Source of the DNA: a virus
Taxonomy: Duplodnaviria > Heunggongvirae > Uroviricota > Caudoviricetes
IMG/VR virus record: IMGVR_UViG_3300006139_000503
DNA length: 19,302 bases
Reading direction: 5' to 3' (one strand)
Position 1 is the first letter of the stretch. The number at the start of each line of letters is the position of its first letter. The notes under the pieces were generated by a model. The model saw only the letters and a program-made list of their open reading frames with translations. It searched no databases and was not told the DNA's origin. Positions 1-15,604 of the stretch are shown here, piece after piece. The translations under genes were made by a program, and so were the position numbers.

Positions 1-69
1 AACCAGACGCAGACCTGGGATTCGCACGGGATGCTGTTTAGGAAGTATGATGCCGTCACGGATTCGTAT
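1..69 (+). repeat. Exact direct repeat of 2898..2966 (conserved tail arm, copy 1)
   Basis: 69/69 identical; first mismatch at base 70 (A vs G); weaker homology continues to about 330/3230. Confidence 0.97.
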
Positions 70-1302
70 ACTGACGAACAGATGAAAATCATTAATTCCA
101 CGCTTGCGATTACCGATGATAACTGGGAGACCTCAAAGACTGCTGTGGGCAAGATTATTTACTACGACCCGGAAAACGATACCTCGAAAGAGGGTTATGG
201 TATAAACGGCGAAGTTCTTGTAGGCAGGCTGATTTTGGGACAGAACTTAGGCATCTATAATGCTGCGAACACGATGAGGTTTACCGAAGACGGGCTTGAA
301 GTAAGTAATGGTGTAAATACGTTCACGGTCAACCCGAATGATGAATGTCTAATGAACATTAAGAACGGAGATACGGATGTATTGAAATTTAATGAGGATG
401 GTGATTTAGAGGTAACTGGATGCATAAATGCTACGAGTGGTAAAGTGTCAATGTTCAATATTGATGATGGCGACGCTGAGGGGTTGACTGCGTATTTTAA
501 TGATGGAACAAAAATTAAGCAGTATGGTTTGCGTAGAAACCGATTCTTTGCGTACTTAAAAGGTGCTTTCAATAAATTTATGGGACATTTAGATTTATAC
601 AACGGAATCGGAGAAGACCGAGAAACACCCTACGTTTCTATTGGCTCCGTTGGAGATGTTGATATAATTAGTAATTCAAATATACATCTGTGTGGAAAAT
701 TGTCTTATACTCCTGATGGTAAAGCTTCTTCTACTTCCTATGTTTCTATTAATGGCACTAATGGAGAAGCTACCTTCTCAGGCGCTACAAAATTTGATGG
801 TGCGTTATATTCATCGAATGTGTACAATACTACAGGCGGTACAGCAAATGTTTACATAAACTCTGCAAACCGTTTCACCCGCGCAACCTCTGCCTCTAAA
901 TATAAGCTGAATATTAAACCATTAGAGGAAAACTCTGATTACGCCTACAATATTCTACAGCTAATACCTAAACAATGGTTCGATAAAACATCCATAGAAA
1001 ATTATGCCGAAGTTCTCACTGCGGTATATAATGGAGATGAGCTGAACCCTGATATAGATAGTACTATTGATACCATTGATTCTTGTTATGGGCTGATTGC
1101 TGAGGACGTTGTCGACGCAGGATTATCAAAATATTGTACGTACAATTCTGAGGGTGAAGTGGAAGGAATCATGTACGAAAAGCTATGGACTTTATTGATT
1201 CCTATAGTTAAAGATTTAGTTGAAAAGGACAAAGAAAAAGATGAAAGAATCAACATGCTCGAAGCTAAAATCAGAGAATTGGAACGGATGATAAATATTT
1301 AA
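1..1302 (+). CDS. Phage tail-tip/minor structural protein, C-terminal part (variant 1) with peptidase S74 intramolecular chaperone; runs in from upstream of the window
   Basis: Frame is open from base 1 (NQTQTWDSHG-MLFRK...), so ATG31 is internal. C-terminus has TSASKYKLNIKPL...YGLIAEDV...IMYEKLWTLLIPIVKDL plus a coiled coil, typical of S74. N-part is homologous to 2898 onward. Confidence 0.85.
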   Translation, partial: NQTQTWDSHGMLFRKYDAVTDSYTDEQMKIINSTLAITDDNWETSKTAVGKIIYYDPENDTSKEGYGINGEVLVGRLILGQNLGIYNAANTMRFTEDGLEVSNGVNTFTVNPNDECLMNIKNGDTDVLKFNEDGDLEVTGCINATSGKVSMFNIDDGDAEGLTAYFNDGTKIKQYGLRRNRFFAYLKGAFNKFMGHLDLYNGIGEDRETPYVSIGSVGDVDIISNSNIHLCGKLSYTPDGKASSTSYVSINGTNGEATFSGATKFDGALYSSNVYNTTGGTANVYINSANRFTRATSASKYKLNIKPLEENSDYAYNILQLIPKQWFDKTSIENYAEVLTAVYNGDELNPDIDSTIDTIDSCYGLIAEDVVDAGLSKYCTYNSEGEVEGIMYEKLWTLLIPIVKDLVEKDKEKDERINMLEAKIRELERMINI

Positions 1303-1307
1303 ATCAA

Positions 1308-1355
1308 ATATCCTCCAGGCTGAATCAAAAGTTAAAAGTTCGGTCTGGAGGATAT
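1308..1355. terminator. Hairpin between convergent tail and Ig/LRR genes, probable bidirectional terminator
   Basis: ATATCCTCCAG (1308-1318) pairs with CTGGAGGATAT (1345-1355); stem extends 6 more pairs including two G-U. Confidence 0.75.
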
Positions 1356-1373
1356 ACAAATATCACAAAATAA

Positions 1374-2297
1374 TTAATGTTCGTTATCTTCTGCTAAATC
1401 AACAAAGGGTATTTTGTTACTTGACGCATAAGAACTAGCATGTGTTCCTTCGTAACCATAAATAGTTAAATTAGGGCAATCTTCAAAAGCATCAGGATGT
1501 ATAGACGTTACACTGGAAGGAATTACTGCTTTTGTTAAATTGGTACAGCCTGAAAATGTGTATATTAATATTTTGGTTAAATTAGCTGGAATATCTATAT
1601 TCCTTAAACTACTACACTGTACAAATACGCAGCTACCTATCTGGGTTACACTATTAGGTATGTTTATGCTTACCAAATTAGTACATCTCCAAAATGCATA
1701 CTGCCTTATTGTTGTTACCCCTTCAGGTATCTTGACCTCTGTCAAGGTCGTACATTCTGAAAACGCATAAGCCCCAATTGCTCTAACCGGCAATCCGTTT
1801 ATCGTTGACGGTATAGTTACAACTTTATCCTGACCATTATATTTCGAAATTACAATGGCTCCTTTTTCCACCTGTCCGGTTTCATCTACCCAATAAGAAA
1901 AATCACCATATGTTGGGCGCTCAGGCTCACTGGGAATAGGCTGCGGTGTCGGTTCCGGCACAGGTCGTGGAACCGGCTTCGGTTTTGTCACCTTAACCTT
2001 ACAAACATACTTCTTCTTCCCTATTTTCGCAGTAATCTTGGCATTACCCGCTTTTTTCCCTACGACCTTGCCTTTCTTACTGACCGTAGCGATTTTCTTA
2101 TTGCTTGTAGACCATTTGGGTTTTTTCTTCGTGCCTTTTAGCTTGAGAGTGACAGATTTGCCTTTTGTGATGGTAACAGACTTTTTACTGAGCTTGATTT
2201 TCGCTGCGGATGCTCGTGAGGGCGAGGAAATTGCTCCGGCTATGACGAGACATAGGGTTAGGAACAACAGCGTTAGTTTATGAATGTGCTTTTGCAT
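1374..2297 (-). CDS. Secreted surface protein: signal peptide, Lys-rich Ig-like (Big_2-type) domain, Pro-rich linker, BspA-type LRR (LRR_5) repeats (variant 1)
   Basis: Signal peptide ending ASA-A; KWSTSNKKIATVSKKGKVVGKKAGNAKITAKIG Ig motif; PKPVPRPVPEPTPQP linker; 4-5 repeats of the AFxxCxxLxxIxIPxxVTxI type; RBS AAAGGAG upstream. Confidence 0.9.
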   Translation of the reverse strand: MQKHIHKLTLLFLTLCLVIAGAISSPSRASAAKIKLSKKSVTITKGKSVTLKLKGTKKKPKWSTSNKKIATVSKKGKVVGKKAGNAKITAKIGKKKYVCKVKVTKPKPVPRPVPEPTPQPIPSEPERPTYGDFSYWVDETGQVEKGAIVISKYNGQDKVVTIPSTINGLPVRAIGAYAFSECTTLTEVKIPEGVTTIRQYAFWRCTNLVSINIPNSVTQIGSCVFVQCSSLRNIDIPANLTKILIYTFSGCTNLTKAVIPSSVTSIHPDAFEDCPNLTIYGYEGTHASSYASSNKIPFVDLAEDNEH

Positions 2298-2390
2298 AGA
2301 TACATCTCCTTTACTATTTATTTCATCGCTTTTGTTGATTTAATTATACATTGGTATTTTCTGTTAGTAAAGTAATATCATATGCGACAT
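1939..2390 (+). repeat. Conserved arm (5' half, RBS and promoter of the Ig/LRR gene), copy 1; repeat of 4770..5230
   Basis: About 14 mismatches over 1939-2297 by manual count (about 96%); homology continues through the promoter to TATCATATGCGACAT / TATTATATGCGATAT. Confidence 0.95.
2343..2371 (-). promoter_or_regulatory. Sigma70-type promoter of Ig/LRR gene 1
   Basis: Minus strand TTTACT-17 nt-TATAAT; same spacing kept in copy 2 despite spacer substitutions. Confidence 0.7.
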
Positions 2391-2399
2391 AAGAGGTAG

Positions 2400-4214
2400 A
2401 ATTGCTACAATTACACTTCAGGTGAGAGCTACGTCTCCACCGGACTTAATAACGCCGAGCTTTTCAAGAACGCACAGAAATACCTTGAGGTCGTGCAGGG
2501 CAGAATCCGCAAGGCATGTATGCCCTCCCCTAATATCTCTGCGACGCTCAGGAACCTGCTGGTGATGCCGGAGTTCGCCCCGATTGTTGACAAGTTCTCT
2601 GTCGGGAACTGGATTCGCGTCAGGGTTGATGGGATACTCTACCGTGTGCGGCTCCGCTCCTACACTATCCATTTCAACGAGCTGGACAACATCCAAATCG
2701 AGTTCTCGAATGCGATGAAATCCACCGACAGCGGAAGCAACATACACCGGACGCTTGTCAAAGCCAGGGCTATGGCCTCAAACTACAGCACTGTCGTAAA
2801 ACAGGCGGAAAAGGGCGAGGAAAGCAAGGCTCTCCTGAACACCTGGGTCGAGAAAGGGCTTGACGCGACGAATACGAAGATTATCGGAGGGGTTGATAAC
2901 CAGACGCAGACCTGGGATTCGCACGGGATGCTGTTTAGGAAGTATGATGCCGTCACGGATTCGTATGCTGACGAGCAGTTAAAGATTATTAACTCCACTC
3001 TTGCAATGACCGACGATAACTGGAAGACTTCGAAAGCCGCGATAGGCAGGATTATCTACCTTGACCCGAAGACTAACACCATGAAAGAAGTGCCTGGTAT
3101 AAACGGCGAGGTTGTGGTAGGGAAGATGATTCTCAGCCAGAATATGGGAATCTATAATAATGCGAACACGATGCAGTTCGACGAAGACGGTCTGAAAATC
3201 ACCAACGGGATAACTACGGTCGCGATAAACCCCAATAACCCGAAAGAGGTTATAATGATAAGCCATGATGGCGTGCCTAAATTCTTCACCGATGAAAACG
3301 GATATGTTCATATCTGGGAAGATGACGTTGTTTTGACTGAGGAAGGATTGGACTTCTTTAGCGACCAGGTTCCTATCGGGCGCATGGTTTCGACGGGGTT
3401 AAAAAGCTACCCTGACGAGAAGGGGCTGCACTTTACTTTGCAGGAAGATGGCTCTTACATGTGTTGGGCGGCGATTGATGAAGCTGGAGAAAATAATATC
3501 AAACTTGCGTATTACCGCGATGGGGTTGTTCCTGGTAAAAACGAAGGGTTACACTTAGGGGATGATTTGTATTGCGACAATTACCCAGTGCATTTTAGTA
3601 ACGGTGTGGAGGCTAGAGCAAACGAAAGCGGAACAACTGTTACGATTGCTGATGGTAATAACTTCGCATTTATGGATAAAAATAGTAATCCTGTATGTAT
3701 TTTTACACCTACTAAGGCTGAGATACGAAAAGTTCTTCATCTTTATCAGAATATAGACATGCATGGATTCAATATCTTAAACCCGTCCGATGCCCGACTC
3801 AAAACAAACATCGAAACTACAGAAGTAAATGCATTGGATACTTTAAACCAGATTGAATTAAAACAATTTGACTGGATTGAAAATGATAATCATGAGGATA
3901 TCGCTATGATTGCTCAGCAGTTACAAAATGTCCTTCCTGATTTAGTGCATGAGGATGAATCAAACGGGAAACTTTCAATTAAGACAGATAAATTTATTCC
4001 TTACTTGATTAAAGCAATTCAGGAATTATCAAATAAAATCAACAGCTTAAATGGTTCCGAACCTTCAACACCGAAATCACGTCACGCAAGTCATAATTCA
4101 TGGGAGGATATTTCTCTTGAAGAAAAGAATGAGTTTGTTGAAAAGATAAAAGAAAAAACGGTTGTCCCAGAAGCTACTACACCTGAACCTGTTTCTATTC
4201 CTGTAGGGCGATAA
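2400..4214 (+). pseudogene. 5'-truncated second tail-tip copy (variant 2, S74 chaperone domain), probably a silent cassette
   Basis: Frame opens after TAG 2397-2399; reads ...YVSTGLNNAELFKNAQ...VGNWIRVRVDG, which looks like mid-protein tail sequence; no well-spaced RBS for GTG2493; C-terminal PSDARLKTNIE...IAQQLQNVLPDLV...YLIKAIQEL is S74. Confidence 0.75.
2898..2966 (+). repeat. Exact direct repeat of 1..69 (conserved tail arm, copy 2)
   Basis: Identical 69-mer at offset 2897. Confidence 0.97.
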
Positions 4215-4220
4215 TTAAAA

Positions 4221-4259
4221 AGATAGGCTATGCTTACATCATTGAAGCGTAGCCCATCT
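4221..4259. terminator. Hairpin between convergent tail-2 and Ig/LRR-2 genes
   Basis: AGATAGGCTATGCTT pairs with AAGCGTAGCCCATCT (15-bp stem, one mismatch, one G-U), flanked by A/T runs. Confidence 0.75.
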
Positions 4260-4267
4260 AATAATTT

Positions 4268-5128
4268 TTATAATGGTTTAAAAGATATTCCTTGTTTATT
4301 TGCAAATTCTTCGGCAAATGAACCCGGCTTACCATAAATAGTTAAATTGGGGTGGTCTGAAGGAACAAATATACTGCCATAAGGCACGGGGGCGGGTAAA
4401 GGAATCGGTCTGCCATACTCGTCAAGTATATAATTGCCATTTTCATCATATTGTGATGTATAATATCCTGGTTTTTTACCCATTATCTTTATCACACTAC
4501 TAGGAATTGTTATTTTAATTAAATTTGGACACATGAGAAATGCCTCATCGGTTATTTCCGTTATCCCTTCAGATATTACAACTTCGACTAATTTCTTATG
4601 ATGTATAATGTCGTCTACAACTTTTACTGGACGTCCCCCTAACGTAGCCGGAATAATAATAGATGTCCATTCTTTATCCTGCGGGAAATCTTTAACTGTA
4701 ACAGTCCCATCCTTTTCCACGACATACTCGCAATTCGTTTCATTCAAAACAACCGGAGCACTCGGGTCTGGCTGCGGCGTCGGTTCCGGCACTGGCCGTG
4801 GAACCGGCTTCGGCTTCGTCACCTTAACCTTGCAAACATACTTCTTCTTCCCTATTTTCGCAGTAATCTTGGCATTACCTGCCTTTTTCCCTACGACCTT
4901 GCCTTTCTTACTGACCGTAGCGACTTTCTTATTGCTTGTAGACCATTTGGGTTTTTTCTTCGTGCCTTTTAGCTTGAGAGTGACAGATTTGCCTTTTGTG
5001 ATGGTAACAGACTTTTTACTGAGCTTGATTTTCGCTGCGGATGCTCGTGAGGGCGAGGAAATTGCTCCGGCTATGACGAGGCATAGGGTTAGGAGCAGCA
5101 GCGTTATTTTATGAATGTGCTTTTGCAT
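4268..5128 (-). CDS. Secreted Ig-like plus degenerate BspA-LRR surface protein (variant 2)
   Basis: First about 120 aa differ from variant 1 at 3 positions; C-terminus has only about 2 LRR repeats, an aromatic/Pro-rich insert and the same NLTIYG cap motif. Confidence 0.88.
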   Translation of the reverse strand: MQKHIHKITLLLLTLCLVIAGAISSPSRASAAKIKLSKKSVTITKGKSVTLKLKGTKKKPKWSTSNKKVATVSKKGKVVGKKAGNAKITAKIGKKKYVCKVKVTKPKPVPRPVPEPTPQPDPSAPVVLNETNCEYVVEKDGTVTVKDFPQDKEWTSIIIPATLGGRPVKVVDDIIHHKKLVEVVISEGITEITDEAFLMCPNLIKITIPSSVIKIMGKKPGYYTSQYDENGNYILDEYGRPIPLPAPVPYGSIFVPSDHPNLTIYGKPGSFAEEFANKQGISFKPL

Positions 5129-5230
5129 AGATACATCTCCTTTACTATTTATTTTACCGCTTTTGTTGATTTAATTATACATTAGTGTTTTTTATTGGTA
5201 AAGTAAGATTTGGGATATTATATGCGATAT
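4770..5230 (+). repeat. Conserved arm, copy 2 (repeat of 1939..2390)
   Basis: Offset 2831 through the CDS and promoter; 9-nt insertion GATTTGGGA near the end. Confidence 0.95.
5174..5202 (-). promoter_or_regulatory. Sigma70-type promoter of Ig/LRR gene 2
   Basis: Minus strand TTTACC-17 nt-TATAAT. Confidence 0.7.
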
Positions 5231-5330
5231 TACAAACGTAAAATACACATCGCAAAGAACGAATCCCAAAATTCTACGTTACTAGAGTTTGGAGGCTTTT
5301 CTTTAGCTATTTTTACTGGTAAAAAGTATC

Positions 5331-5662: not shown

Positions 5663-6990
5663 GAATGTTGAAAAGTATTTAGCCCGCAATCCCATTAGCT
5701 TTAGCTGATGGGTTAAGGGTGTAATTTATAAAATAAAAATAGAATATATAGCCAGAAGGGTGGTGACAAGTAAATGCTAAAAGCCTACAAATACCGTATT
5801 TATCCAAACGGACAACAGGAGGAACAAATACAAAAGACGTTCGGGTGTTGTAGATTTGTATATAACAATACTCTTTCATACAGGAAAGAAAAATATGTGA
5901 AACAGAAAGAATCCATGAATAAAGTTGCTTGTAACAACTATGTCAATCAAACATTAAAGAAAGAATACGAATGGCTGAAGGAAGTTGATAAGTTTGCATT
6001 GACAAATGCAGTTTACAACATGGATTCTGCATATCAGAAGTTTTTCAAGGAACATGCGGGATATCCGAAATTTAAAAGTAAGCACGACAGTCATAAATCA
6101 TACACAACAAATTTTACAAACGGAAATATTGCTGTATTGTTTGATTCAAACAAAATCAAACTTCCAAAACTTAAATTGGTAAAAGCAAAACTGCATAGAA
6201 AATTTGACGGTAAAATAAAATCTGCTACTATCTCACAGGTTTCATCTGGAAAATATTTTGTATCTATCCTTGTGGAAACAGGACATATACAAATGGAACC
6301 CGCTGATTGTATAGTTGGTATTGATTTAGGTATTAAGGATTTACTTGTTACCTCCAATGGACAGAAATTTGATAACAAGAGACTAACTAAGAAATATGAA
6401 GATAAATTGGCAAAGGAACAGAGAAATTATCTCATAAAGTAAAAGGTAGTAAAAATTGGAACAAACAGAGAATTAAAGTAGCGAAAATACACGAAAAGGT
6501 TTCAAACACCAGAAAAGATTACTTACATAAAATATCCAGTCAGCTAGTAAGCGAAAACCAAGCGATAGTGACTGAGGATTTGGCTGTAAGTAATATAGTA
6601 AAGAATCATACTCTTGCAAAAGCAATTTCTGATTGTGGCTGGCATGAACTGACACGACAATTACAGTATAAATCTGATTGGAATAATCGCCAGTATGTGA
6701 AAATTGGACGATTTGTTAAATCAAGCCAAACGTGTAATATTTGTGGGTATGTTAATGAGGAAACGAAAAATTTATTTGTCAGGGAATGGACGTGCCCTCA
6801 ATGTGGAAATGTACATGACCGTGATATTAATGCCGCTATCAATATTCTTAATGAAGGGTTAAGACTACTCGATGTAGCTTAGATATATTGAGTACGGTAG
6901 GAACTATCGGAATTAACGCCTGTGGAGATAGTAGGTTGCGAGGTCGATGAAGCAGGAAGCCCATCGAGCTTTAGCTCGTGGGTAGTTCAC
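5663..6990 (+). mobile_element. IS200/IS605-family tnpB-only (non-autonomous) element
   Basis: Subterminal hairpins CCCATTAGCT-TT-AGCTGATGGG (5691-5712) and CCCATCGAGCT-TT-AGCTCGTGGG (6960-6982); right end GGTAGTTCAC at 6990; left boundary is inferred (after TTTAT 5658-5662); no tnpA. Confidence 0.8.
5774..6882 (+). pseudogene. tnpB: TnpB RNA-guided nuclease split by a 1-nt deletion near 6424-6426
   Basis: MLKAYKYRIYPN HTH; RuvC GIDLG, TEDL and DRDINAA; CNIC/CPQC zinc finger. Restoring one A in GAGAAATTAT gives KEQRKLSHKVKGSKNW and a 369-aa ORF. Confidence 0.9.
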
Positions 6991-7104: not shown

Positions 7105-7134
7105 ATATCAGCGAATCGAAGTCGACTGAGTTTT
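7105..7134 (+). repeat. 30-nt direct repeat, copy 1 (27/30 with 8729..8758), containing palindrome AGTCGACT
   Basis: ATATCAGCGAATCGAAGTCGACTGAGTTTT vs ATATCAACGAATGGAAGTCGACTGAATTTT. Confidence 0.85.
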
Positions 7135-7210: not shown

Positions 7211-7425
7211 ATTAGTGTCAAATGTAATATTTTTAAGATTGCTGCCTAGTCTTGGCATCTGCAAACATGAATCATGGCATGACTTGCGTTAACTGGGGTA
7301 TTTATCATTTTGTACAAGCCTTGTATAATAGTGTTATCAAGTATGCAGGGAGTTTTAATGCGATGATTTATGATTTACATATATATAAGCATTTTAAATT
7401 AACCAAAGAGAGTTATGGTGGTAGC

Positions 7426-8061
7426 ATGACGGGCATTACAATTGAGGGGAAAAAGAAGATGAGAAAAAGCATACAAAGTATTACTGATAAAATCAAGCAA
7501 GAACGCCAATACAACAATAAGATTTATTATGCTTCTGATATGGAATATCTGGCATCAGAAATCCTATCTGCCATGCCAGACACCACTGATGATAGAAATT
7601 CTTGTATTACACCAGTAGTGTCTATCGCAAAAGCGATGGGATTTGATACATTCCAGCAAGATTTGCTGTGGTTTTTATCCGGTTGTATTGGTATCAATAA
7701 AAAGTACATAAAAAAGTTTAAGACAGACCACATTATTTTTACAAACAGAAAAGTACATCCGTACCAACAAAGATTTGTTATTGCCCATGAATTGGCGCAT
7801 TATCTGTTTGATTATGACCATACGTCTGAAGTGTACTATAATACATATAAGAAAAATAGTCATAGTGCAGAAGCAGAAAAGCGTGCAAATGCCTTTGCAG
7901 CCAGCTTACTTATGCCAAAGGATGCCTTCTTAAAAGAATATAATAAGGCAAGAGCTAAGAGTAACAACCCTATATTCATTCTGGATTATCTTTCAGATAC
8001 ATTTAAAGCTCCTAGAAAATCTGTTTTGAAAAGAATGTACGAGGTGGGTTGTTATGCTTAG
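7426..8061 (+). CDS. ImmA/IrrE-family Zn metallopeptidase (start 7426 or 7459 rather than TTG7252)
   Basis: QRFVIAHELAHYLF (HExxH) and EKRANAFAASLLMP; GAGGGG RBS precedes ATG7459. Confidence 0.9.
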   Translation: MTGITIEGKKKMRKSIQSITDKIKQERQYNNKIYYASDMEYLASEILSAMPDTTDDRNSCITPVVSIAKAMGFDTFQQDLLWFLSGCIGINKKYIKKFKTDHIIFTNRKVHPYQQRFVIAHELAHYLFDYDHTSEVYYNTYKKNSHSAEAEKRANAFAASLLMPKDAFLKEYNKARAKSNNPIFILDYLSDTFKAPRKSVLKRMYEVGCYA

Positions 8062-8638
8062 GTCGTTGGCTGGAACGAGTGGTGTTAGCGAAATCCCAAT
8101 CAGAGATGACGCTCTGACGCAACCGGAAGATGCTTACTGCGAACTTCCCAAGCACAATGCGGTATATACGAACTTACTAAAAATATATGAAAATACTACA
8201 AGAATAAACATATATTTGAAAGTCCTTTTTAAATTTACATTTTTTATAGTTGCAATATACATATGGTTGAAAATGGTTTTTATATTTAACGATTCTTTTT
8301 ATAGCGTTTTGAATATAATTAAAACCAACAAGACATTAGATAGTCAAGCTGTCTTGGATTTAATAGCGACTTTTATTCCTCCACTTGTATCGCTCACTAC
8401 TTCATTTATTATAATACCAAAAATTATTGCGAAATATCTATTCAACATAAAGGAAGAAAAAAGTATGGTTGAAATAATAAATAATCTGCAAAGGTATGAC
8501 ACAGCCCTCTATGGACATAGATACAAAGAACGGTTAACGCATAACCCTAGCGGCACTGCTCCTGATGAAACTACCTCTGCAGAACCTATTCCTAGTGAAG
8601 CCGTTCCTGATGAAGTTACTTCTACAGAAGCAAGTTAG
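8054..8638 (+). CDS. Two-TM membrane protein with low-complexity acidic tail, coupled to the peptidase; candidate toxin/effector
   Basis: 8-nt overlap with the upstream gene, RBS GAGGTGG, two hydrophobic segments, motif IPKIIAKYLFxxKEEK. Confidence 0.8.
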   Translation: MLRSLAGTSGVSEIPIRDDALTQPEDAYCELPKHNAVYTNLLKIYENTTRINIYLKVLFKFTFFIVAIYIWLKMVFIFNDSFYSVLNIIKTNKTLDSQAVLDLIATFIPPLVSLTTSFIIIPKIIAKYLFNIKEEKSMVEIINNLQRYDTALYGHRYKERLTHNPSGTAPDETTSAEPIPSEAVPDEVTSTEAS

Positions 8639-8728
8639 ATATGTTGTCTACGCGACCCAAAGAGCATAAGTACCACATAGTGCTGATGCTCTCTATTAAT
8701 TACTGCAACTATACCCGAATCACCCGCT

Positions 8729-8758
8729 ATATCAACGAATGGAAGTCGACTGAATTTT
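8729..8758 (+). repeat. 30-nt direct repeat, copy 2
   Basis: 27/30 identical to 7105..7134. Confidence 0.85.
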
Positions 8759-8768
8759 GAAACAAAAA

Positions 8769-8798
8769 TTGAGCCATAGCTTAAATGCTATGGCTCAA
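8769..8798. terminator. Perfect 12-bp hairpin terminator; the better U-tail is on the minus strand
   Basis: TTGAGCCATAGC-TTAAAT-GCTATGGCTCAA preceded by AAAAA (8764-8768). Confidence 0.8.
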
Positions 8799-8799
8799 C

Positions 8800-9040
8800 C
8801 ACCTTTCATTCCACTCTTGTTACCGTATTCGGTAACGAAGAATCCTACTTTTCGTAGAATGTACTATTGATTTCAAGTCCGTTCTGGTTAACGGAAACGT
8901 GAAATTCTATAGTATCCTTAGAGAAGATACTGTAGACCAGGTAGTATCCTAAATCCCAGCACTACGAGCATGTTGCACTTGCATCCCTAAATAACTATCG
9001 CAAGACAAAGAACAAATGCTGCCGCTTCGTCAGTTTATTT
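8800..9040 (-). ncRNA. Candidate structured RNA, block A
   Basis: No long ORF; several hairpins (GTTACCG/CGGTAAC, CCGTT/AACGG, AGTATC/GATACT); motifs shared with block B; points into the 8769 terminator. Strand and ends uncertain. Confidence 0.3.
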
Positions 9041-9188
9041 CACGCTTGAAATAGTCACATTTTTAACATATTTATACTGATATTTGAATAAGCATATACT
9101 AACCATATTGATTAAATGATGTGTCAAAATATATTCAATTTTTTAATAAACTTTATGACTAAGGATTAGGAAAAGGATTTTTATATTG

Positions 9189-9217
9189 TTGACTAATGCT
9201 ATTCTTTGTTATATAAT
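9189..9217 (+). promoter_or_regulatory. Near-consensus sigma70 promoter of the two-gene cyclase-like operon
   Basis: TTGACT-17 nt-TATAAT. Confidence 0.8.
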
Positions 9218-9248
9218 GTAAAAAAATATATGGTAGGTGAACGTATTT

Positions 9249-10262
9249 ATGACAGAGAAAAACCAAAGAAAAATGCTTTTTCTATACCCCAATGAACTAA
9301 AAACTGATGATTTAAAAAATATACGCTCTATAATGAGGTTATCCCCAGATTTGAAGGAAATAGTAAATAGTGTTAACCATTTTATCAAGCAGATAAGCGA
9401 AAAAATAGGCGAAACTCAATGTCCTTCTAAGATTCAATGTACTTCTGTTTCTAATTATGAAAAAGTAGTTACTGAATATCATAATATCCGATTATGTTTG
9501 GTGCAACATAACGATATAAAATACAATAATATTTACAACAAAATAATTGACGCATACAAACACAACAGCAGTGATATAAGTCATTTAATTTCATTATCAA
9601 TTACATCTCATAAATATAAACTCGGAGAAAAAACCAAATGGAAATATGACCCACAGAAGGATTTTGATATCAACATTGAAACGCATTTAAATTACTTAGA
9701 GTACATTCTATCATCTATTATGTTAGATATCATCTTTTATAGATACTTTAAGTTAAGCAATAATTTATCCGAAAGGAAGAAGTTTTCTAAAGAAAAAAAA
9801 GATTATATTTTAAACCTCAAGTATAATGATAATAAAATTATCCAAAAATATTATGGAAGTAATATTACAGAATTGAATAAAACAAGCTATCTATCATTAT
9901 CCTATCCTCTAGTTTTAGAACACTGTTGCAATAACAGCATAAGCTTGGATGATTTAATTCATTTTCTACTAGAGGATTACTGGAATTTAATTATTAAAAC
10001 ACTCTTCGTTGAAATAGAATTACTAGAAAATTATACAATGTTTGACCCAAACAATCAATATAGCAAATTTGATAAAACTGTACGGATGCAAATCAGTGAT
10101 GTAATTCCAGCTTTCTGTAAGCAAAACAATGTCGACTTCCCCTCATTGGTAGCTATAAAGAAGGGCTCCGTTGAACTCTCTGATTGCTATTTCGTAGAAG
10201 ACAGCAGTGTGTTTTTAGCATTAAACGGCTCATTTAACTATTTTAAATTAATTTCTAAGTAA
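9249..10262 (+). CDS. Hypothetical protein, soluble, no confidently recognised domain (start ATG9249)
   Basis: Long AT-rich ORF; AGGTGA RBS at 9235-9240; 14 nt upstream of the next gene. Confidence 0.8.
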   Translation: MTEKNQRKMLFLYPNELKTDDLKNIRSIMRLSPDLKEIVNSVNHFIKQISEKIGETQCPSKIQCTSVSNYEKVVTEYHNIRLCLVQHNDIKYNNIYNKIIDAYKHNSSDISHLISLSITSHKYKLGEKTKWKYDPQKDFDINIETHLNYLEYILSSIMLDIIFYRYFKLSNNLSERKKFSKEKKDYILNLKYNDNKIIQKYYGSNITELNKTSYLSLSYPLVLEHCCNNSISLDDLIHFLLEDYWNLIIKTLFVEIELLENYTMFDPNNQYSKFDKTVRMQISDVIPAFCKQNNVDFPSLVAIKKGSVELSDCYFVEDSSVFLALNGSFNYFKLISK

Positions 10263-10276
10263 ACAGAGGTGTTGAT

Positions 10277-11296
10277 ATGGGATATATTTCATATTTTGAT
10301 TTATTAGGAACAAAAAATTTTAAAGACGATGCTTGTGAATATGAAGAAAATATTAACATCTTTTATTCAGAAGTCGAAAAAGGAACTATTTTTTTAAGCG
10401 GGCTTGGCGAAGTAGGCTTGTTTAGTGACTCCGTTTACGCTTTTTCCAGGGACTTAGAGCGGCTTCTGGATTATTTAATTTATTTGAGGGAGTCCTTATG
10501 CGCACATGGCTTATTTTTTAATGCTGTAGTTTCAAGAGGCGATTTGGGTTCATTTAATCTCCAATCATCGGGACAAGAACTTCCTGTTTTTGGAGTAGGA
10601 TTTACGGACAAATCAATAATAGACCTATATTTAGAGCAGACCTTGTTTAAAGGAATTGGCATAAAAATTAATAACCAACTTATTAATGAGGTAAATGAAA
10701 TCTCGAGCTTAAAAATAGCCAACAGCTTCTACTACACATCTTATCCATATAATCTAAAGCCATATTACGATATTGCATATGACGTAACGAATATGTCATA
10801 TGACAAAAAAATGAAAAATATCCTCTCATTAATAATCAAAAGTGCACTTAAAGCGTATTCTGTAAATATTAATCACGGAAGATACTATACTTCTTTGTTT
10901 TTTACTATCATGGATAGTTATGATTCAAAACAAATCAATTGGGATTGGGAACAAGATGATAAAACATTTAAAGGTCTGCCCGAAATATTTAATATTATAA
11001 TAAATATTTCTACAGGAAGATACGATGAATGCAAGGACTGGATTGGAATAGACGCCCTCTGTCTTAGAATCATAGATATGATACTTTGTAGTGAAAAAGT
11101 TGACAACCGAATATTAAGAGATATTATTAGTGTTTTTATTAATTTCCCTTGCCTAAAAAAATATATAAATTCATTAGACAGTATTCCTGATGTCTTTTCG
11201 ACTCCAGTTAACAAAAAGAAATTTATTAATTGCGTTCAAGATTATTTTGCACACGATTTAGTTCAAAAATTAATAGGTGATACGTCCTACAATTAG
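10277..11296 (+). CDS. Class III nucleotidyl cyclase-like protein with C-terminal extension
   Basis: YISYFDLLGTK (D8) and GLFSDSV (D51), two Asp 43 residues apart as in class III cyclase metal sites; downstream FFNAVVSRG and FGVG...LYLEQ fit the fold; RBS GAGGTG. Confidence 0.6.
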   Translation: MGYISYFDLLGTKNFKDDACEYEENINIFYSEVEKGTIFLSGLGEVGLFSDSVYAFSRDLERLLDYLIYLRESLCAHGLFFNAVVSRGDLGSFNLQSSGQELPVFGVGFTDKSIIDLYLEQTLFKGIGIKINNQLINEVNEISSLKIANSFYYTSYPYNLKPYYDIAYDVTNMSYDKKMKNILSLIIKSALKAYSVNINHGRYYTSLFFTIMDSYDSKQINWDWEQDDKTFKGLPEIFNIIINISTGRYDECKDWIGIDALCLRIIDMILCSEKVDNRILRDIISVFINFPCLKKYINSLDSIPDVFSTPVNKKKFINCVQDYFAHDLVQKLIGDTSYN

Positions 11297-11302
11297 CTTT
11301 AA

Positions 11303-11524
11303 TTAGGAGCCGATAAAATACTTGTGTCAGTAATAATTGCCATACCTATCTCAATTACCAAATATCTCTTCAGTGCAAAAGAAGATAAAAATACTACTGA
11401 CATTATCTTACATACGCAGGAACATGACACAACAGGAAGACAATGGACTCTGGATTTCAAAAAGACAGAGCACGAATCTGCAAATGAACCTGAAGACACA
11501 TCAAATAATAATGAAAGTGCATAG
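11303..11524 (+). pseudogene. 3' fragment paralogous to membrane gene 8054..8638
   Basis: IAIPISITKYLFSAKEDKNTTDIILHTQEHDT aligns with IIIPKIIAKYLFNIKEEKSMVEIINNLQRYDT; frame begins after TAA 11300-11302. Confidence 0.7.
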
Positions 11525-11533
11525 ACAGAATCT

Positions 11534-11562
11534 AAAGAGCAGGGCTTACTCTCCTGCTCTTT
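11534..11562. terminator. Hairpin terminator
   Basis: AAAGAGCAGG pairs with CCTGCTCTTT (10 bp perfect). Confidence 0.75.
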
Positions 11563-11599
11563 CTCAATTATATAATACTATGATTGGCTTCAATGAATG

Positions 11600-11850
11600 C
11601 ACATCTATCCCCTGCTAAGCAAACTCGACAACAAATTGTCGTTAAGTTTAGTAATCCTAAAGCGAATTAGGCATGTTGCCCGCACATTACAGGGGCTAAT
11701 TCTTCATGTCTGACCAGTCGCTCCTCCCGCAAGGATTTCAAGTCAATATCCGGAAGGATGTCTTTTAGTATCTCTCGTATGGAATCTACAGCAGAAACTC
11801 AGGGACTTGCACCCTTTGCAATCGCTTCCCACCACTGGCAATAAAGATAT
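11600..11850 (-). ncRNA. Candidate structured RNA, block B
   Basis: Visibly GC-richer than its flanks; hairpins CGACAA/TTGTCG, CCTAA/TTAGG, AGGG-ACTTGCA-CCCT; shares motifs with block A. Strand uncertain. Confidence 0.3.
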
Positions 11851-11882
11851 CTTCTTTAGCAGTCAAGTAGTCAAGTCAAAAA

Positions 11883-12226
11883 TTGGCTAAAGATAAAATT
11901 GCTCAGACGGGTGATGTCACAGGAACTACCACTGCTGTAATTTCTTCATTTGTTACTATATTGGCGTCTCTTTTTAACCTCCCCAAAATAATCGCGGAAT
12001 ATTTGTTTAACCCGAAAGAGGATAAGAATATATCTACAATTGTTGGCAGATACAACAGTATGACATTGGTATGTATTCTGTGGAAAGAGGTTTAGAACTG
12101 GAAATGATGAGACAGAGGGGTAGCGTATCAGGAAGCGATTCTGCTCCTGTATCTGACGAATATCCTGGGAACCCTGATGATATGGTCATAAACGCAAATG
12201 CTGTATCTGTATCAGCATCAGAATGA
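11883..12226 (+). pseudogene. Second fragment of the same membrane-protein family, 5'-truncated and frameshifted near 12048
   Basis: LFNLPKIIAEYLFNPKEDKNISTIVG, then in a shifted frame IQQYDIGMY...SVSASE-stop, matching LQRYDTALY...TEAS of 8054..8638. Confidence 0.75.
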
Positions 12227-12507
12227 TAAACTAAACACGTTCTTCGGATACAAAGAACTCCTTTCTTTTTGAAGTGTATAGAAGCGGCAGGTATGTCATA
12301 ACAATTCCCGCCGCCATTTTAATTATGTTTCATTTCCTGCTATTATTAAATAGATGCATTAAATATTGTATCTTTAAACATTATATCTAGTCAAAATATA
12401 TCCTCTGCATATTGTAATTTATAAACTTATGTTCTATCTACTCAATTGTCGAATATTGTTATATAATGTAGATAATATAGATTAAAATAAAATTGGAGGG
12501 GGTAAAA

Positions 12508-13425
12508 ATGAAACAACCAACTTGTGAAATGTGTGGCGGAACTGACCTCATGAAGCAGGATGGCGTCTTTGTATGCCAAAACTGTGGTATGAAATATTCC
12601 GTTGAAGAAGCAAAGAAAATGATGATTGAGGGTAATGTTGATATCCAAGGTACCGTTCAAATTGATAATTCATCTTTTGTACAAAAATATCTTTTAAATG
12701 CACGTCGTGCATTTGATAAAGAAGATTGGGAAGAAGTAGAAAAATATTATAATATGGTCGAGCAAAATTCTCCCGATAATATAGAAGCCGTATTCTTTAG
12801 CGCATATGGCAAAGCTATGTTAGCTCTTACTGATTCTGATTACTATAAAAGGCAGCAGAAGTTTACAGTACTCAATAATTCAATTTCTGTTATCAATGAT
12901 TACTATGAAGTAACGGACGAGGATAAAGAGGCCGTCCTTACTAAAATCAGTGATGCAATACTTAAAATGTCCTCAATAAATTATGTTTATGATACAAAAG
13001 CTGGTTATTCAGTCGGTGGAAACAATTGGCAGATAAATTTGTTCACCGCCACAAAAAACGCCTTTGTGACACAACTCAGACAACTCGGCGCAAAGCATAA
13101 TGACATTTACATTCAAGAACTTATAAAGAAAATGTCAACAGCTCAAACAACCAATAATGGATGTTACGTAGCTACTGCTGTCTATGGTTCTTATGATTGT
13201 CCTCAGGTTTGGACGCTTCGTCGTTATCGTGACTACACCCTTGCTGAAACATGGCATGGAAGAGCATTTATTAAAACTTATTACGCAATTAGCCCTACTC
13301 TTGTAAAATGGTTTGGACACACGGAATGGTTCAAGAAAATGTGGAGAGGGAAACTTGACCGTATGGTTGAAAATTTACAATCTAATGGTATTGAGTCTAC
13401 ACCTTATGAAGATAGAAGATGGTAA
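12508..13425 (+). CDS. TFIIB-type Zn-ribbon, helical (TPR-like) region and C-terminal CFI-box-CTERM-like domain protein
   Basis: CEMCGG...CQNCG; GCYVATAVYGSYDCPQVWTLRRYRD...YYAISP; GGAGGGGG RBS favours ATG12508. Confidence 0.85.
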   Translation: MKQPTCEMCGGTDLMKQDGVFVCQNCGMKYSVEEAKKMMIEGNVDIQGTVQIDNSSFVQKYLLNARRAFDKEDWEEVEKYYNMVEQNSPDNIEAVFFSAYGKAMLALTDSDYYKRQQKFTVLNNSISVINDYYEVTDEDKEAVLTKISDAILKMSSINYVYDTKAGYSVGGNNWQINLFTATKNAFVTQLRQLGAKHNDIYIQELIKKMSTAQTTNNGCYVATAVYGSYDCPQVWTLRRYRDYTLAETWHGRAFIKTYYAISPTLVKWFGHTEWFKKMWRGKLDRMVENLQSNGIESTPYEDRRW

Positions 13426-13463
13426 AAAATCACGCTGAAGCACTCTGCTTTGGCGTGATTTTT
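13425..13463. terminator. Terminator after the CFI-box gene
   Basis: AAAAATCACGC...GCGTGATTTTT stem with inner AAGCA/TGCTT. Confidence 0.8.
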
Positions 13464-13480
13464 ATAAAGGAAGATAGCAC

Positions 13481-13513
13481 AATTCCACTGGCTTTAAACA
13501 ACCGATAGTTCAC
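13481..13513 (+). other. Possible degenerate IS200/IS605 right-end remnant
   Basis: AATTCCACTGGCTTTA-9 nt-TAGTTCAC mirrors AAGCCCATCGAGCTTTA-9 nt-TAGTTCAC at 6957-6990; hairpin arm lost. Confidence 0.35.
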
Positions 13514-13756
13514 AGGTATTAGAACAATGATTATACAAGTCTATGTATTTTAGAACCAAATTATTACTATTTTATTGTTTGTAATTATTTTTATAGTATG
13601 CGTTACACTTATTTCACAATACTTAAAATTTTCTTCCTACTTAATAGCTTTTTATTAACTCAAACGGAATCCCTTTTTAACAAATACATGATAATATCAT
13701 TTTTGAATAAAATATTAAATGAGTTATGAAAATTAGAACTAAAGGAAAGTGCTAAA

Positions 13757-14077
13757 ATGACACAGGAAGAACTGCAAGATATGCTTCAGACATCGCTCGC
13801 AGAAAGAGCCGGTCTTGAAGAACTGTTGGCAAAGCAAGATAAAAAAGATAAAAAAGTAATTAGCGTTTATTGCGCAAACAACAATCCAGCAGATATTTAT
13901 CGAACTTTAAAATTGTTAAATCAACATAAAGGAATGCCTATTCACGATAAAGAAATAGTTACCAAATTTAAAAACAACTATCCCAATAGCCTAACGATTA
14001 AATCCATTTGTGAGTTTGAGGATTTAAGAGACATATATAGTACTTATTTAGAATCTGGAGGAAACGATAATGAGTAA
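13757..14077 (+). CDS. Hypothetical protein, gene 1 of a coupled four-gene operon
   Basis: AAAGGAAAG RBS; 8-nt overlap with the next gene. Confidence 0.75.
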   Translation: MTQEELQDMLQTSLAERAGLEELLAKQDKKDKKVISVYCANNNPADIYRTLKLLNQHKGMPIHDKEIVTKFKNNYPNSLTIKSICEFEDLRDIYSTYLESGGNDNE

Positions 14078-14285
14078 TTCTTATGTTTTTCGTATTCTCA
14101 CAGAAGCCAAAAAATCGCAACTAATACATACGTTTAATTTGAGCAATATACTGATTAACGAAAGAACCGCTATTTATGAAAATACTAATATGCGATTAAG
14201 CATAGATAAAAAAGTTATACGTGTTTTGCTATTCCGTGAGGATAAAATACTTTTAGAAGAATTGAGGAATTTTTTTTATGACTAA
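14070..14285 (+). CDS. Small hypothetical protein, operon gene 2
   Basis: GGAGG RBS; overlaps both neighbours. Confidence 0.7.
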   Translation: MSNSYVFRILTEAKKSQLIHTFNLSNILINERTAIYENTNMRLSIDKKVIRVLLFREDKILLEELRNFFYD

Positions 14286-14745
14286 CCATATTGACGACTT
14301 TGATAAGACAGTGACTATTTTTGAAGATATCTTGCGCTCTTTAAACTATTCTTATAAATCTATTAATTTAAATGATGACGATATTAACTACATTGTTTGT
14401 ATCCCTGCAACGGGTAATCTGAAAAAATTAGATATAATTCCTGTGCTAATGTATCTCAACATTAAAGATTATTCTCTTACTATTTTGGCTGGAAATATAT
14501 ATCGTTTTAAAAAAGGAGAAGACGTAAATCCTTTTTACAAACTTGTTAATTCAGTTAATGAACTAATCAAAAGCGGAACCTTTACTGTAAACGAAAAATC
14601 AAATCAAATTTTATACTTGGATTCTATGTATTGCGGAAGCGACTTCAAAGAATTATCAAGAAACAAAATAAGATTGTTAATCGATTCATTTATTGACGGA
14701 TTGTCTGTTTTATTAACATCAATAGCCAGAATGGAAAATAAATAG
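14278..14745 (+). CDS. Hypothetical protein, possibly YbjN/T3SS-chaperone-like fold, operon gene 3
   Basis: GAGGA RBS; about 155 aa with FYKLVNSVNELIKSGTFTVNE resembling the LLNELN...F.V pattern of YbjN-like proteins. Fold call is weak. Confidence 0.6.
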   Translation: MTNHIDDFDKTVTIFEDILRSLNYSYKSINLNDDDINYIVCIPATGNLKKLDIIPVLMYLNIKDYSLTILAGNIYRFKKGEDVNPFYKLVNSVNELIKSGTFTVNEKSNQILYLDSMYCGSDFKELSRNKIRLLIDSFIDGLSVLLTSIARMENK

Positions 14746-14746
14746 T

Positions 14747-15220: not shown

Positions 15221-15434
15221 GAAACATACAGGGCTGATTCAAAAAAGTCTGGCATAGCTTGGGCAGTTGAAAGATATAACAGTGAAATAGCTTAAGATAA
15301 AAGAGCGCATTATTAATAAACACCTGTCCGCTATTTAACCATATATCATTCCAAAACGATATATGGTGTATTTATTGATATTATTTATTTTTCTATGCTA
15401 TACTGTTTATACCAAAAAATAGGAGGTATTTACA

Positions 15435-15596
15435 ATGAGAAAAACTAATATTATCAACACTGCACGAGACATGACTGCCAAAGAAAAACACAATCAACCG
15501 AAAACAAATCATATATTCTCCAGAAGGCCTGCGCATCCTGCACCTAAATCCGGAGAAAATACTAATGAAGGAGGAACTGCTCAATCGAATCACTAA
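15435..15596 (+). CDS. Unannotated 53-aa hydrophilic peptide MRKTNIINTARDMTAKEKHNQPKTNHIFSRRPAHPAPKSGENTNEGGTAQSNH
   Basis: Perfect AGGAGGT RBS at 15421-15427, 7 nt before ATG; directly precedes the membrane gene. Confidence 0.65.
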   Translation: MRKTNIINTARDMTAKEKHNQPKTNHIFSRRPAHPAPKSGENTNEGGTAQSNH

Positions 15597-15604
15597 TTAA
15601 ATAT

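Follow-up and report, generated by a model that had tools for sequence, protein, structure and literature searches.

The locus analyzed here is most closely analogous to the orphan toxin/immunity arrays known from CDI and Rhs loci, where displaced orphan CT/immunity modules lie behind the cdiA and rhs genes (PMC4927057; for orphan cdiA-CT/cdiI and rhs-CT/rhsI modules, also Koskiniemi et al. 2014, PMC3967940, as cited in PMC4927057). In both cases, a demarcating motif in a long gene sets off a polymorphic C-terminus from the conserved body, each C-terminus is accompanied by a partner gene, and 5'-truncated, start-less downstream copies that retain homology to the conserved body form tandem arrays. 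In CDI and Rhs loci, homologous recombination joins an orphan to the expressed gene and removes the resident pair; here, the fusion is known from proteins. The polymorphic end is a toxin in CDI/Rhs but a tail tip in the present locus (with an S74 chaperone domain in tip 2). Its partner, a secreted Big_2/LRR protein, is encoded on the opposite strand, whereas the CDI/Rhs partner is a cytoplasmic immunity protein encoded on the same strand. Because of the nature of this end and this partner, the locus, which belongs to a Gram-positive phage, is not a member of the CDI/Rhs group.

Among phages, the closest parallel is the receptor-binding/Llp module of T5 and BF23, in which oad or hrs lies beside llp, and Llp blocks the receptor used by the tip (PMC4728585, PMC9586334). 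In T5-like phages, a receptor-binding gene and a gene for a small exported protein are located side by side and exchanged as a module, and here likewise the partner gene adjoins the tail-tip (presumed receptor-binding) gene and both are exchanged together. Whereas Llp, from a lytic coliphage, is a small lipoprotein of the outer membrane, the protein encoded here is about 300 aa long, has a signal-peptidase-I type signal and lacks a lipobox (residues 13-16, read from the sequence, are LTLC, with Leu at -1 off the consensus), and carries a variable LRR head on a constant part that would serve as an anchor. T5-like phages also lack orphan copies.

Alternative fibre ends are carried as well by the invertible tail-fibre segments Mu G, P1 C and e14 P, which depend on a site-specific invertase and inverted repeats, whereas diversity-generating retroelements employ a reverse transcriptase; in Mu and P1, the alternative tail-fibre C-termini each have a cognate neighbour gene. 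As in these systems, host range could change without outside DNA, but the repeats here are direct, the crossovers are scattered, and no recombinase or retroelement lies nearby, a combination that points to general homologous recombination with one-way deletion. Finally, in tail-fibre mosaicism, recombination with prophages and their remnants, by a relaxed homologous mechanism, swaps fibre ends at conserved arms (PMC3945230, PMC13195805). The exchange described below is of the same kind, but its donor is a spare copy in the phage's own genome, with a conserved junction and a linked partner gene.

The window is the whole 19,302-nt stretch of IMG/VR record IMGVR_UViG_3300006139_000503 that was analyzed, and the two units are contained within approximately positions 1-5230, with the following features:

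1-1302, + strand: 3'-terminal 433 codons of the expressed tail-tip gene, which is truncated where the contig begins; PHROG tail families, 2e-28
1-69, + strand: hinge block, copy 1, an exact copy of 2898-2966, encoding NQTQTWDSHGMLFRKYDAVTDSY
70-340, + strand: tail arm of unit 1, where identity to unit 2 falls from about 80% to none
341-888, + strand: body of tip 1 (type A), presumably the part that binds the receptor; shares 20% identity with tip 2
889-1302, + strand: tip 1 C-terminal domain, aligning with the intramolecular-chaperone domain of tip 2, below the Pfam threshold
1308-1355, unstranded: hairpin 1 (18-bp stem) between the convergent genes; -27.4 kcal/mol, z = -8.2 (+ strand)
1374-1922, - strand: variable head of Ig/LRR-1, a BspA-type LRR solenoid, acidic (pI 4.9); LRR_5, 2.3e-34
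1923-2297, - strand: constant part of Ig/LRR-1 (the Ig arm), with signal peptide, Big_2 and proline-rich linker
2343-2371, - strand: promoter-like site of Ig/LRR-1, TTTACT-17-TATAAT, by consensus match only
2396-2408, unstranded: ancestral illegitimate junction, joining the Ig-gene upstream region to an internal point of a tail gene; the same to the base in the window, L001 and L056
2400-4214, + strand: orphan tail fragment of 604 open codons with tip 2, type B, open from stop to stop
2400-2897, + strand: upstream tail arm of the orphan (86% identity with the expressed gene), which includes three of the four natural crossover intervals
2898-2966, + strand: hinge block, copy 2, an exact copy of 1-69
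3786-3950, + strand: Peptidase_S74 intramolecular-chaperone domain of tip 2; Pfam, 1.5e-14
4221-4259, unstranded: hairpin 2, unlike hairpin 1 in sequence; z = -4.7 (+ strand) and -5.1 (- strand)
4268-5128, - strand: Ig/LRR-2, with a constant part as in Ig/LRR-1 and a shorter, remodelled head (type B); Big_2, 1.5e-8; LRR_5, 5.6e-5
5174-5202, - strand: promoter-like site of Ig/LRR-2, by consensus match only

An earlier note on this DNA described a unit of about 2.9 kb that occurs twice in direct orientation, with near-identical outer arms and differing C-termini and terminators, and this description holds. Both copies have the same layout: a + strand tail ORF, then a hairpin, then a - strand ORF encoding a signal peptide, Big_2 and LRR_5. 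Measured start to start, the repeat offset is 2897 nt for the tail arm and 2831 nt for the Ig arm. Self-comparison of the window shows that the hinge blocks are identical to the last base, and the Ig arms (1939-2375 and 4770-5206) are 95.4% identical over 437 nt without gaps, the match reaching approximately 2395 if a 9-nt indel is allowed. The last 315 aa of tips 1 and 2 are 20% identical, and the two LRR heads 31%. Thus, as had been proposed, the variable ends of two convergent genes are enclosed by conserved arms, and, facing each other between these arms, they form one exchange cassette.

The extent of the tail arm and the nature of the second tail gene differ from the earlier description. 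The exact match of the 69-nt block was correct, but the real arm goes about 500 nt farther upstream: positions 2427-2892 are 86% identical to their counterpart in the full-length tail gene of contig L001. A break in the source contig is the reason why the window begins exactly with the 69-nt block. Past base 69, identity between the two tail arms is 80% to about base 300 and nil by about 340. Within the block, there are no synonymous changes in 23 codons, compared to 0.19-0.27 per codon in the flanks, and the second-longest exact run shared by the two tail arms is 27 nt. The block encodes NQTQTWDSHGMLFRKYDAVTDSY, part of a motif invariant throughout the tail family, and its exactness exceeds what protein conservation predicts. 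As to the pairing of two tail genes, unit 1 does contain the 3' part of a whole gene, but unit 2 contains a 5'-truncated fragment.

The full tail-tip gene encodes 1249 aa in L001. In L001 and L031, PhageMin_Tail (2614 aa) is followed by DUF6558 ('phage tail protein'), and this in turn by the tail-tip gene of 1249 or 1288 aa, so that the tail-tip gene sits 3' of the tape measure and the DUF6558 tail protein, in the Tal-position order of siphophages. The protein carries an invariant hinge motif, followed by an exchangeable tip of approximately 430-470 aa. The Pfam scan gave no match for its N-terminal part, and the C-terminal domain of tip 1 matched Peptidase_S74 only at E=0.12 and tip 2 in BLASTP at E=0.076. 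The locus closes the tail module of a temperate siphophage, the host of which is probably a mouse-gut Lachnospiraceae bacterium.

The gene convergent on the tail gene would be self-contained, with a promoter-like site, a strong Shine-Dalgarno sequence and a shared hairpin, and in its secreted product a proline-rich linker would connect a Big_2 domain, constant and extremely basic, with an LRR head that is variable and acidic. The Big_2 domain of Ig/LRR-1 has a pI of 10.9 and no acidic residues at all, and AAAGGAG precedes the ATG. An AF2 model of Ig/LRR-1 (mean pLDDT 87, solenoid 91-98) contains an N-terminal signal helix at residues 3-23, and its LRR fold matches TpLRR 6mlx and 4gt6, as well as 4fs7 and 4h09, all cell-surface LRR proteins. 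Ig/LRR-1 thus has the repeats, solenoid and export signal of BspA-type LRR_5 surface proteins, which Ig/LRR-2 resembles weakly (5.6e-5). The location of these genes on the opposite strand, along with the promoter-like sites, strong Shine-Dalgarno sequence and hairpin, might fit morons, autonomous genes within a late operon; promoter-like sites are no more frequent in this region than in shuffled sequence.

Unit 2 is a 5'-truncated, start-less orphan that is cut at the same base in diverged phages. Its codons correspond to the full tail-tip gene from about residue 658 onwards, and neither a start nor a Shine-Dalgarno sequence is conserved among the copies compared. An old illegitimate join would have set the second cassette behind the first, such that it begins approximately 165 codons upstream of the hinge, without a separate start. 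The tip in unit 2 is of type B in the window and in L001, and of type A' in L037 and L056; in L037, an insertion of about 250 nt interrupts the junction, and the alignment immediately after it is uncertain. Five diverged copies, of 604-638 codons, all keep the orphan frame intact. Some strains hold two or more orphans (in L086, the orphan is followed by a further one), and one tail remnant, L081, carries an internal deletion.

The earlier note had proposed that the tip pairs are switchable by homologous pop-out with no dedicated recombinase, and switching of tips by plain homologous recombination is borne out. Six public 1254-aa proteins (P0230, P0359, P0356, P0353, P0360 and P0362) are, at the protein level, exact natural full-length chimeras of the unit 1 gene and the orphan, with no mismatches to the former over residues 1-649 and 0-2 mismatches to the latter beyond the arm. 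Their crossovers fall into four intervals, at residues 733-741, 744-758, 778-794 and 840-844, and the orphan-specific residues 657-733 are absent from all six. The 840-844 class, bordering on the 69-nt repeat, could be a threading error of the assembler if k was below 69. Given that the crossover points differ among the six chimeras, the spare tip does recombine into the working gene. These protein sequences indicate that homologous recombination in the tail arm of approximately 770 nt repeatedly fused the expressed gene to the orphan tip, and that at least three independent crossovers appear to have brought the orphan tip of the window into the expressed gene. Inverted repeats of at least 30 nt were not found in the window, Pfam scans of its ORFs detected no recombinase or reverse transcriptase, and the sole transposase-like genes, a split TnpB and a PDDEXK_2 gene, lie far downstream. 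No deletion joint was found in four runs, where the search covered contigs and was blind to rare forms.

The co-inheritance of tip and LRR head, also anticipated by the earlier note, is apparent as well. Tip types A, B and C pair one-to-one with head types A, B and C on two phage backbones, with a Spearman coefficient of 0.87 between the pairwise identities of tips and heads (the pairs are not independent). The Ig arm sorts independently of tip and head type (rho 0.19). Cassette contents are replaced as blocks: the truncated copies compared show no differences over 200 codons and then dS > 1, and the tail proteins of L041 and L044 are 88.5% identical over residues 1-941 and unrelated beyond. 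Co-variation of this kind is expected from physical linkage between the arms alone.

Taken as a whole, the model of an orphan switch, comprising the array, the ancestral junction, the block swaps and recombination with the spare tip, is probably correct. The exchange would usually occur inside one genome or concatemer, deleting unit 1, and the resulting phage would carry tip 2 together with LRR-2; the chimeras could instead have arisen by exchange between two phages.

The role of the LRR protein is more tentative. It would sit on the lysogen surface, held by its basic domain. On the preferred but tentative reading, the LRR head would bind the receptor of the matching tip and so exclude phages of the same tip type, and the exclusion range would grow by one specificity with each orphan. 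A role of the protein as a lysogenic-conversion adhesin, paired with the tip by linkage alone, is about as likely. Several observations were counted against exclusion. Linkage suffices for the co-variation, and the protein is unlike the lipoprotein Llp. The head dN/dS of 0.17-0.39 points to purifying selection and gives no hint of an arms race. Genes for proteins related to the LRR protein occur in plain chromosomal settings (L048 and L083); L085 combines the Ig arm with a LysM head, and its 3' neighbour is a same-strand membrane-protein gene, with no tail tip. Distant relatives of the tail gene have no Ig/LRR partner of this kind. That the heads are tip-type-specific exclusion factors for a proteinaceous receptor and the locus a library of tip and receptor-mask cassettes is somewhat doubtful. 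If true, recombination would change the host range while a mask fitting the new tip is always kept, and the locus would be a phage counterpart of the toxin/immunity orphan arrays.

Among the alternatives to the orphan switch, the one that survives best, albeit unlikely, is that unit 2 is an inert scar, the fossil of a past recombination between two phages, accompanied by two morons. The Ig/LRR adhesins would then be kept for themselves, the truncated tail would hitch-hike, and the chimeras would be incidental, with no selected role. A fossil is one of the two published models of CDI orphans (PMC4927057), linkage accounts for the tip/head co-variation, and the decayed remnant in L081, the Ig/LRR relatives away from tail genes and the purifying selection on the heads all fit such a scar. 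Against it, the orphan frame has stayed open in the five diverged copies, the junction is kept while the cassette contents change, and the window's orphan tip apparently entered the expressed gene through at least three separate crossovers. Furthermore, a 2.9-kb direct repeat should vanish quickly from a size-limited genome unless retained.

It is highly improbable that the orphan is expressed by itself, as a free C-terminal fibre fragment of approximately 550-564 aa starting at ATG 2520 or 2565 and driven by an extended -10-like site at the junction, which would serve as a second receptor-binding protein or a soluble decoy. The reading frame is open, TGCTACAAT is present at 2403-2411 on the + strand, and gene callers choose ATG 2520 in many assemblies, but promoter-like sites exceed no shuffled expectation, and the L037 copy lacks ATG 2520. 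The only start common to all copies is an ordinary internal Met with poor Shine-Dalgarno spacing, and the fragment would lack the N-terminal two-thirds that would hold the tail-tip protein on the virion.

The identical structure is present in many independent mouse-gut assemblies (MEGAHIT, SPAdes, JGI and Logan), and in 20 runs, drawn from 11 studies, 94% of the words sampled from positions 1-5300 are present. A false tandem, created during assembly from two related phages that differ in their tips, might be suspected because the window, like several other contigs, breaks exactly at the 69-nt repeat, because the samples contain several variants and because depth is uneven in run X3. The probability of such an artefact is practically negligible: the junction of the Ig promoter with the tail gene is an adjacency absent from either single-unit phage and is covered by contigs from four assemblers and by a single 603-nt unitig in four runs, the 37.9-kb k127 contig L001 crosses the whole locus from the tape measure to past unit 2, and, as weak evidence, word depth in three runs is similar among pieces unique to unit 1, to unit 2 and to the region downstream.

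Host range is the main limit on phage action in the gut community, and the built-in host-range changers of which we are aware are invertible segments and retroelements. Under the orphan-switch model, start-less spare tips in direct repeat would transfer the logic of silent cassettes and orphan toxins to a part of the virion, with the conserved hinge motif and the conserved Ig arm as natural exchange points. Because short-read assemblies break exactly at this locus, such arrays are probably under-counted. To our knowledge, few receptor-specific superinfection exclusion factors have been described in Gram-positive gut bacteria, for which the LRR protein is a candidate.

The window contains two direct copies of a unit of ~2.9 kb, in each of which a strong hairpin separates a tail ORF on the + strand from a convergent ORF whose product (hereafter, the Ig/LRR protein) combines a signal peptide with a Big_2 domain and LRR_5 repeats. 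The tail ORFs are as follows:

First tail gene, + strand: only the last 433 codons lie within the window
Second tail ORF, + strand: open from 2400, with homology to the full gene from ~2408, which corresponds to residue 658 of 1249

The two units are related through their outer parts, the tail arm and the Ig arm. Positions 1-69 are identical to 2898-2966, after which the identity is ~80% up to base 300 and fades by ~340; in addition, positions 2427-2892 are 86% identical to the corresponding stretch of the full tail gene, so that the true tail arm spans ~770 nt. The Ig arms (1939-2375 and 4770-5206) are 95.4% identical in an ungapped alignment, which extends to ~2395 when a 9-nt indel is allowed. 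Between the arms, the copies are unrelated, with 20% identity between the variable C-termini of the tail proteins (tips 1 and 2), 31% between the LRR ends (heads), and different hairpins. The arrangement described in the earlier note, convergent genes with paired conserved arms and facing variable ends, is thus borne out.

The 69-nt block encodes part of the motif GLDATNTKIIGGxDNQTQTWDxHGMLFRKYD, which is invariant even among tail proteins with just 43% overall identity. Protein constraint alone is insufficient to account for the exact match because there are no synonymous changes in the 23 codons of the block, compared with 0.19-0.27 per codon in the flanks. The second-longest exact run between the two tail arms is 27 nt, and the block looks like a recent patch of conversion or crossover.

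Public assemblies were used to check the duplication. The exact Ig/LRR proteins of both units (LRR-1 and LRR-2) are encoded on many mouse-gut contigs assembled with MEGAHIT or SPAdes, by JGI, or in Logan, and 94% of the sampled words of positions 1-5300 are present in 20 sequencing runs from 11 studies. A 37.9-kb MEGAHIT k127 contig, L001, spans the locus from the tape measure through both units into further genes, in the order 2614-aa tape measure, DUF6558 tail protein, 1249-aa tail gene, LRR-1, truncated tail gene, and second LRR gene. The inter-unit junction is crossed by a single unitig (2294-2896 or 2294-2966) in each of the four runs examined. A merge of two related phages during assembly, the artefact raised in the earlier note, would not create this junction and is rejected. 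Many shorter contigs, including the source contig of the window, end exactly at the 69-nt block, which explains why the window begins there. In a JGI assembly (L010, 13841-13995), the expressed tail gene is called as two ORFs of 419 and 43 aa, and two matches to tip 1 overlap by 65 nt, suggesting that a short stretch was duplicated immediately ahead of a more diverged 3' patch; the split reflects a genuine frameshift or else a seam where the assembly joined variants.

The first tail gene occupies the tail-tip position of siphophages, after the tape measure and a distal-tail-type protein. The 5'-truncated tail ORF of unit 2, denoted the orphan, has no conserved start: the ATG at 2520 chosen by the gene callers has a weak Shine-Dalgarno sequence and is absent from the diverged copy in L037, another tandem phage, and the sole start common to all orphan copies is an ordinary internal Met codon. 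A Peptidase_S74 chaperone domain forms the C-terminus of tip 2 (1.5e-14); the corresponding end of tip 1 can be aligned with it, but at no better than E=0.12. A megablast search of positions 1-5300 against cultured and deposited phages gave no match, and tblastn searches of phage records with the tail arm and the LRR protein retrieved just distant, mostly unannotated uncultured gut contigs. One annotated tblastn match, PV036455.1, has an LRR gene in a replication module and is unrelated. Scans of IMG/VR with tip 2 and with the Ig/LRR alignment detected no relative, and a scan of genome contigs yielded only distant Big_2 proteins among the matches listed.

Ten units from nine distinct loci were compared (the cassettes of the related contigs L041 and L042 are identical). 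There are three tip types, each accompanied by its own head type, and this pairing holds on two backbones, in agreement with the one-to-one co-variation predicted in the earlier note. Types A and B occur in the family of the window. In the second family, L041 and L044 have tail proteins that share 88.5% identity in residues 1-941 but are unrelated thereafter, L041 combining tip C with head C and L044 tip B with head B; the types match in L044 even with a MazE/PIN pair inserted between the tail and LRR genes. Tip type is not tracked by Ig-arm identity, and the same type-B' head is found on two different arms (L001 and L086). This co-variation is consistent with functional pairing but is not proof of it, because linkage between two arms would yield the same pattern. 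A counter-example to obligate pairing is locus L085, where the Ig arm carries a LysM head and the 3' neighbour is a same-strand membrane-protein gene. Near more distantly related tail genes, drawn from human-gut contigs and 15 Lachnospiraceae genomes, the Ig/LRR model had no match except for one distant convergent LRR ORF in one of these genomes (L112), and in most of these relatives, same-strand genes come next after the tail gene. In another Lachnospiraceae genome (L117, 3823-5428), a relative of the tail gene precedes two same-strand, paralogous genes for predicted lipoproteins (257 and 267 aa), possibly another tail-linked slot for surface proteins.

A search of full-length proteins with a type-B tip produced a cluster that groups orphan products with six proteins of 1254 aa, encoded on Logan and ENA contigs 7.6-24 kb long. 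All six are exact chimeras: residues 1-649 match the expressed gene of L001 without a mismatch, the part beyond the arm has 0-2 mismatches to the orphan of the window, and each protein shows one clean switch among the 61 informative arm sites.

Switch intervals (residues) in the six chimeric proteins
733-741: P0230
744-758: P0359
778-794: P0356
840-844: P0353, P0360, P0362

The 840-844 class, at the edge of the 69-nt repeat, could result from assembler threading. The other three classes fall where the arms share no exact run longer than 27 nt and, for this reason, were not invented by k=31 assembly. The orphan-specific residues 657-733 are absent from all six chimeras, which argues that the expressed gene recombined with the orphan and not the reverse. 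Judging from these protein sequences, at least three independent homologous exchanges have put the tip of the orphan into the working gene. An invertase switch and a retroelement were also considered and excluded within the window. Six chimeric proteins with four crossover intervals thus support switching by homologous recombination as proposed in the earlier note; in its pop-out form, the exchange presumably deleted unit 1, as expected from a crossover between direct repeats. Neither a deletion joint between the arms nor a circle joint was detected in four runs, all represented by Logan contigs, which are unable to show rare forms; the runs labelled 'organism A' are metagenome-sized and not isolates. 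In three contigs (L005, L006 and L007), the upstream arm of the orphan is joined to the arm of unit 1 across the 69-nt block; such contigs could stem from a reciprocal product or a circle, from an orphan whose tip is of type A, or from threading by the assembler.

Where the region upstream of the Ig gene meets the middle of the tail gene, the window, L001 and the related locus L056 agree base for base; in L037, this join carries an insertion of ~250 nt, and the alignment just downstream is uncertain. The comparison indicates that the orphan junction is ancestral. The tip of unit 2 is of type B in the window and L001, and a relative of type A in L037 and L056. All five truncated copies retain 604-638 open codons, and comparisons among them reveal stretches of 200 codons without change followed by regions with dS >1 and dN/dS ~0.2. 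Such a pattern is the signature of orphan contents being replaced as blocks by recombination with functional genes, and not decaying in place.

The array varies in length. There are single-unit relatives (L031, L032 and L041), and L086 continues from one orphan unit through the junction into the beginning of a further orphan, which fits the deeper junction unitig in three runs (X11, X18 and X19): there, unitig 2294-2896, which comprises the Ig promoter, the junction and the orphan upstream arm, is 3-4 times as deep in words as either tip. Run X3 has ~3 times more depth over unit 2 and the downstream region than over unit 1. These differences, in what is a weak measure, suggest that genomes carry additional orphans or that several variants of the array co-exist.

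The LRR gene adjoins a Tn916-type integrase and excisionase, with host genes beyond, in L042 and L043, placing the cassette near a prophage end. Contig L081 (1153-2171) carries two tandem Ig/LRR genes followed by a tail remnant, a decayed cassette in which the arm motif runs straight into the final 30 residues of the chaperone end. The 30-nt motif ATATCAGCGAATCGAAGTCGACTGAGTTTT occurs twice in the window (7105-7134 and 8729-8758, 90% identity) and again within the insertion at the L037 orphan junction (about 8300-8590), and may be the end of a small mobile element. Right behind unit 2, an IS605-family TnpB gene, probably a pseudogene, is split into two ORFs, one with HTH_OrfB_IS605 and weak OrfB_IS605 matches (5774-6442) and one with the Cas12f1-like TNB domain (6568-6882); orphan arrays of CDI systems likewise carry transposase genes. 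The tail cassettes border an accessory island at 7252-17287 that encodes an ImmA/IrrE peptidase with a small partner, two low-GC ~340-aa products without known function, and a PDDEXK_2 nuclease-like protein.

The structural model of the Ig/LRR protein is confident (mean pLDDT 87): a signal helix precedes a Big_2 sandwich, which a disordered linker rich in proline connects to an LRR solenoid. In model comparison, the solenoid is similar to TpLRR and to LRR proteins found at the cell surface of gut commensals. Of the 74 residues of the Big_2 domain, 27 are basic and none is acidic (pI 10.9), and the head has a pI of 4.9; the basic domain would hold the protein on the anionic cell envelope, with the head outward. 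Both Ig/LRR genes look autonomous, as each is equipped with a promoter-like site, a hairpin and a strong Shine-Dalgarno sequence. In L037, a third Ig-arm gene (8683-9939, 418 aa) with a doubled LRR_5 head lies between the two units, so that, together with the LysM head of L085, the constant arm carries several head architectures. Positive selection was not indicated by the dN/dS values of the LRR heads. Complex prediction for a tip 1 trimer (residues 100-296) with the LRR-1 head scored 0.00, a result that weighs on neither side of the question of binding.

Relatives of the tail gene are present in 17 of the 401 sampled genomes of the family containing a Blautia faecis locus, the putative host family. 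Of the interpretation in the earlier note, the geometry, co-inheritance and recombinational switching hold, given the arms, the matched tip and head types, and the chimeras; the suggested role of the Ig/LRR protein in superinfection exclusion is tentative, and somewhat doubtful in our estimate, and an adhesin role unrelated to the tip is about equally plausible. Among phages, the closest precedent is found in T5 and BF23, where the receptor-binding gene oad/hrs is paired with llp, which encodes a matched exported protein (PMC4728585, PMC9586334); the Ig/LRR protein, however, lacks a lipobox, and any like function is putative. Closest in logic are the orphan cdiA-CT/cdiI and rhs-CT/rhsI modules, displaced start-less 3' ends homologous to the main gene that are arranged in tandem with partner genes, that recombination can fuse to the main gene, and for which both a 'fossil' and a 'silent reserve' model have been set out (PMC4927057). 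The locus described here is not a member of the CDI/Rhs family because it has a tail tip as its variable end and a secreted LRR protein as the partner. That tail-fibre ends are exchanged by relaxed homologous recombination is well established (PMC3945230, PMC13195805); the new element here is that a spare copy is kept internally, at a conserved junction and together with a linked partner gene.
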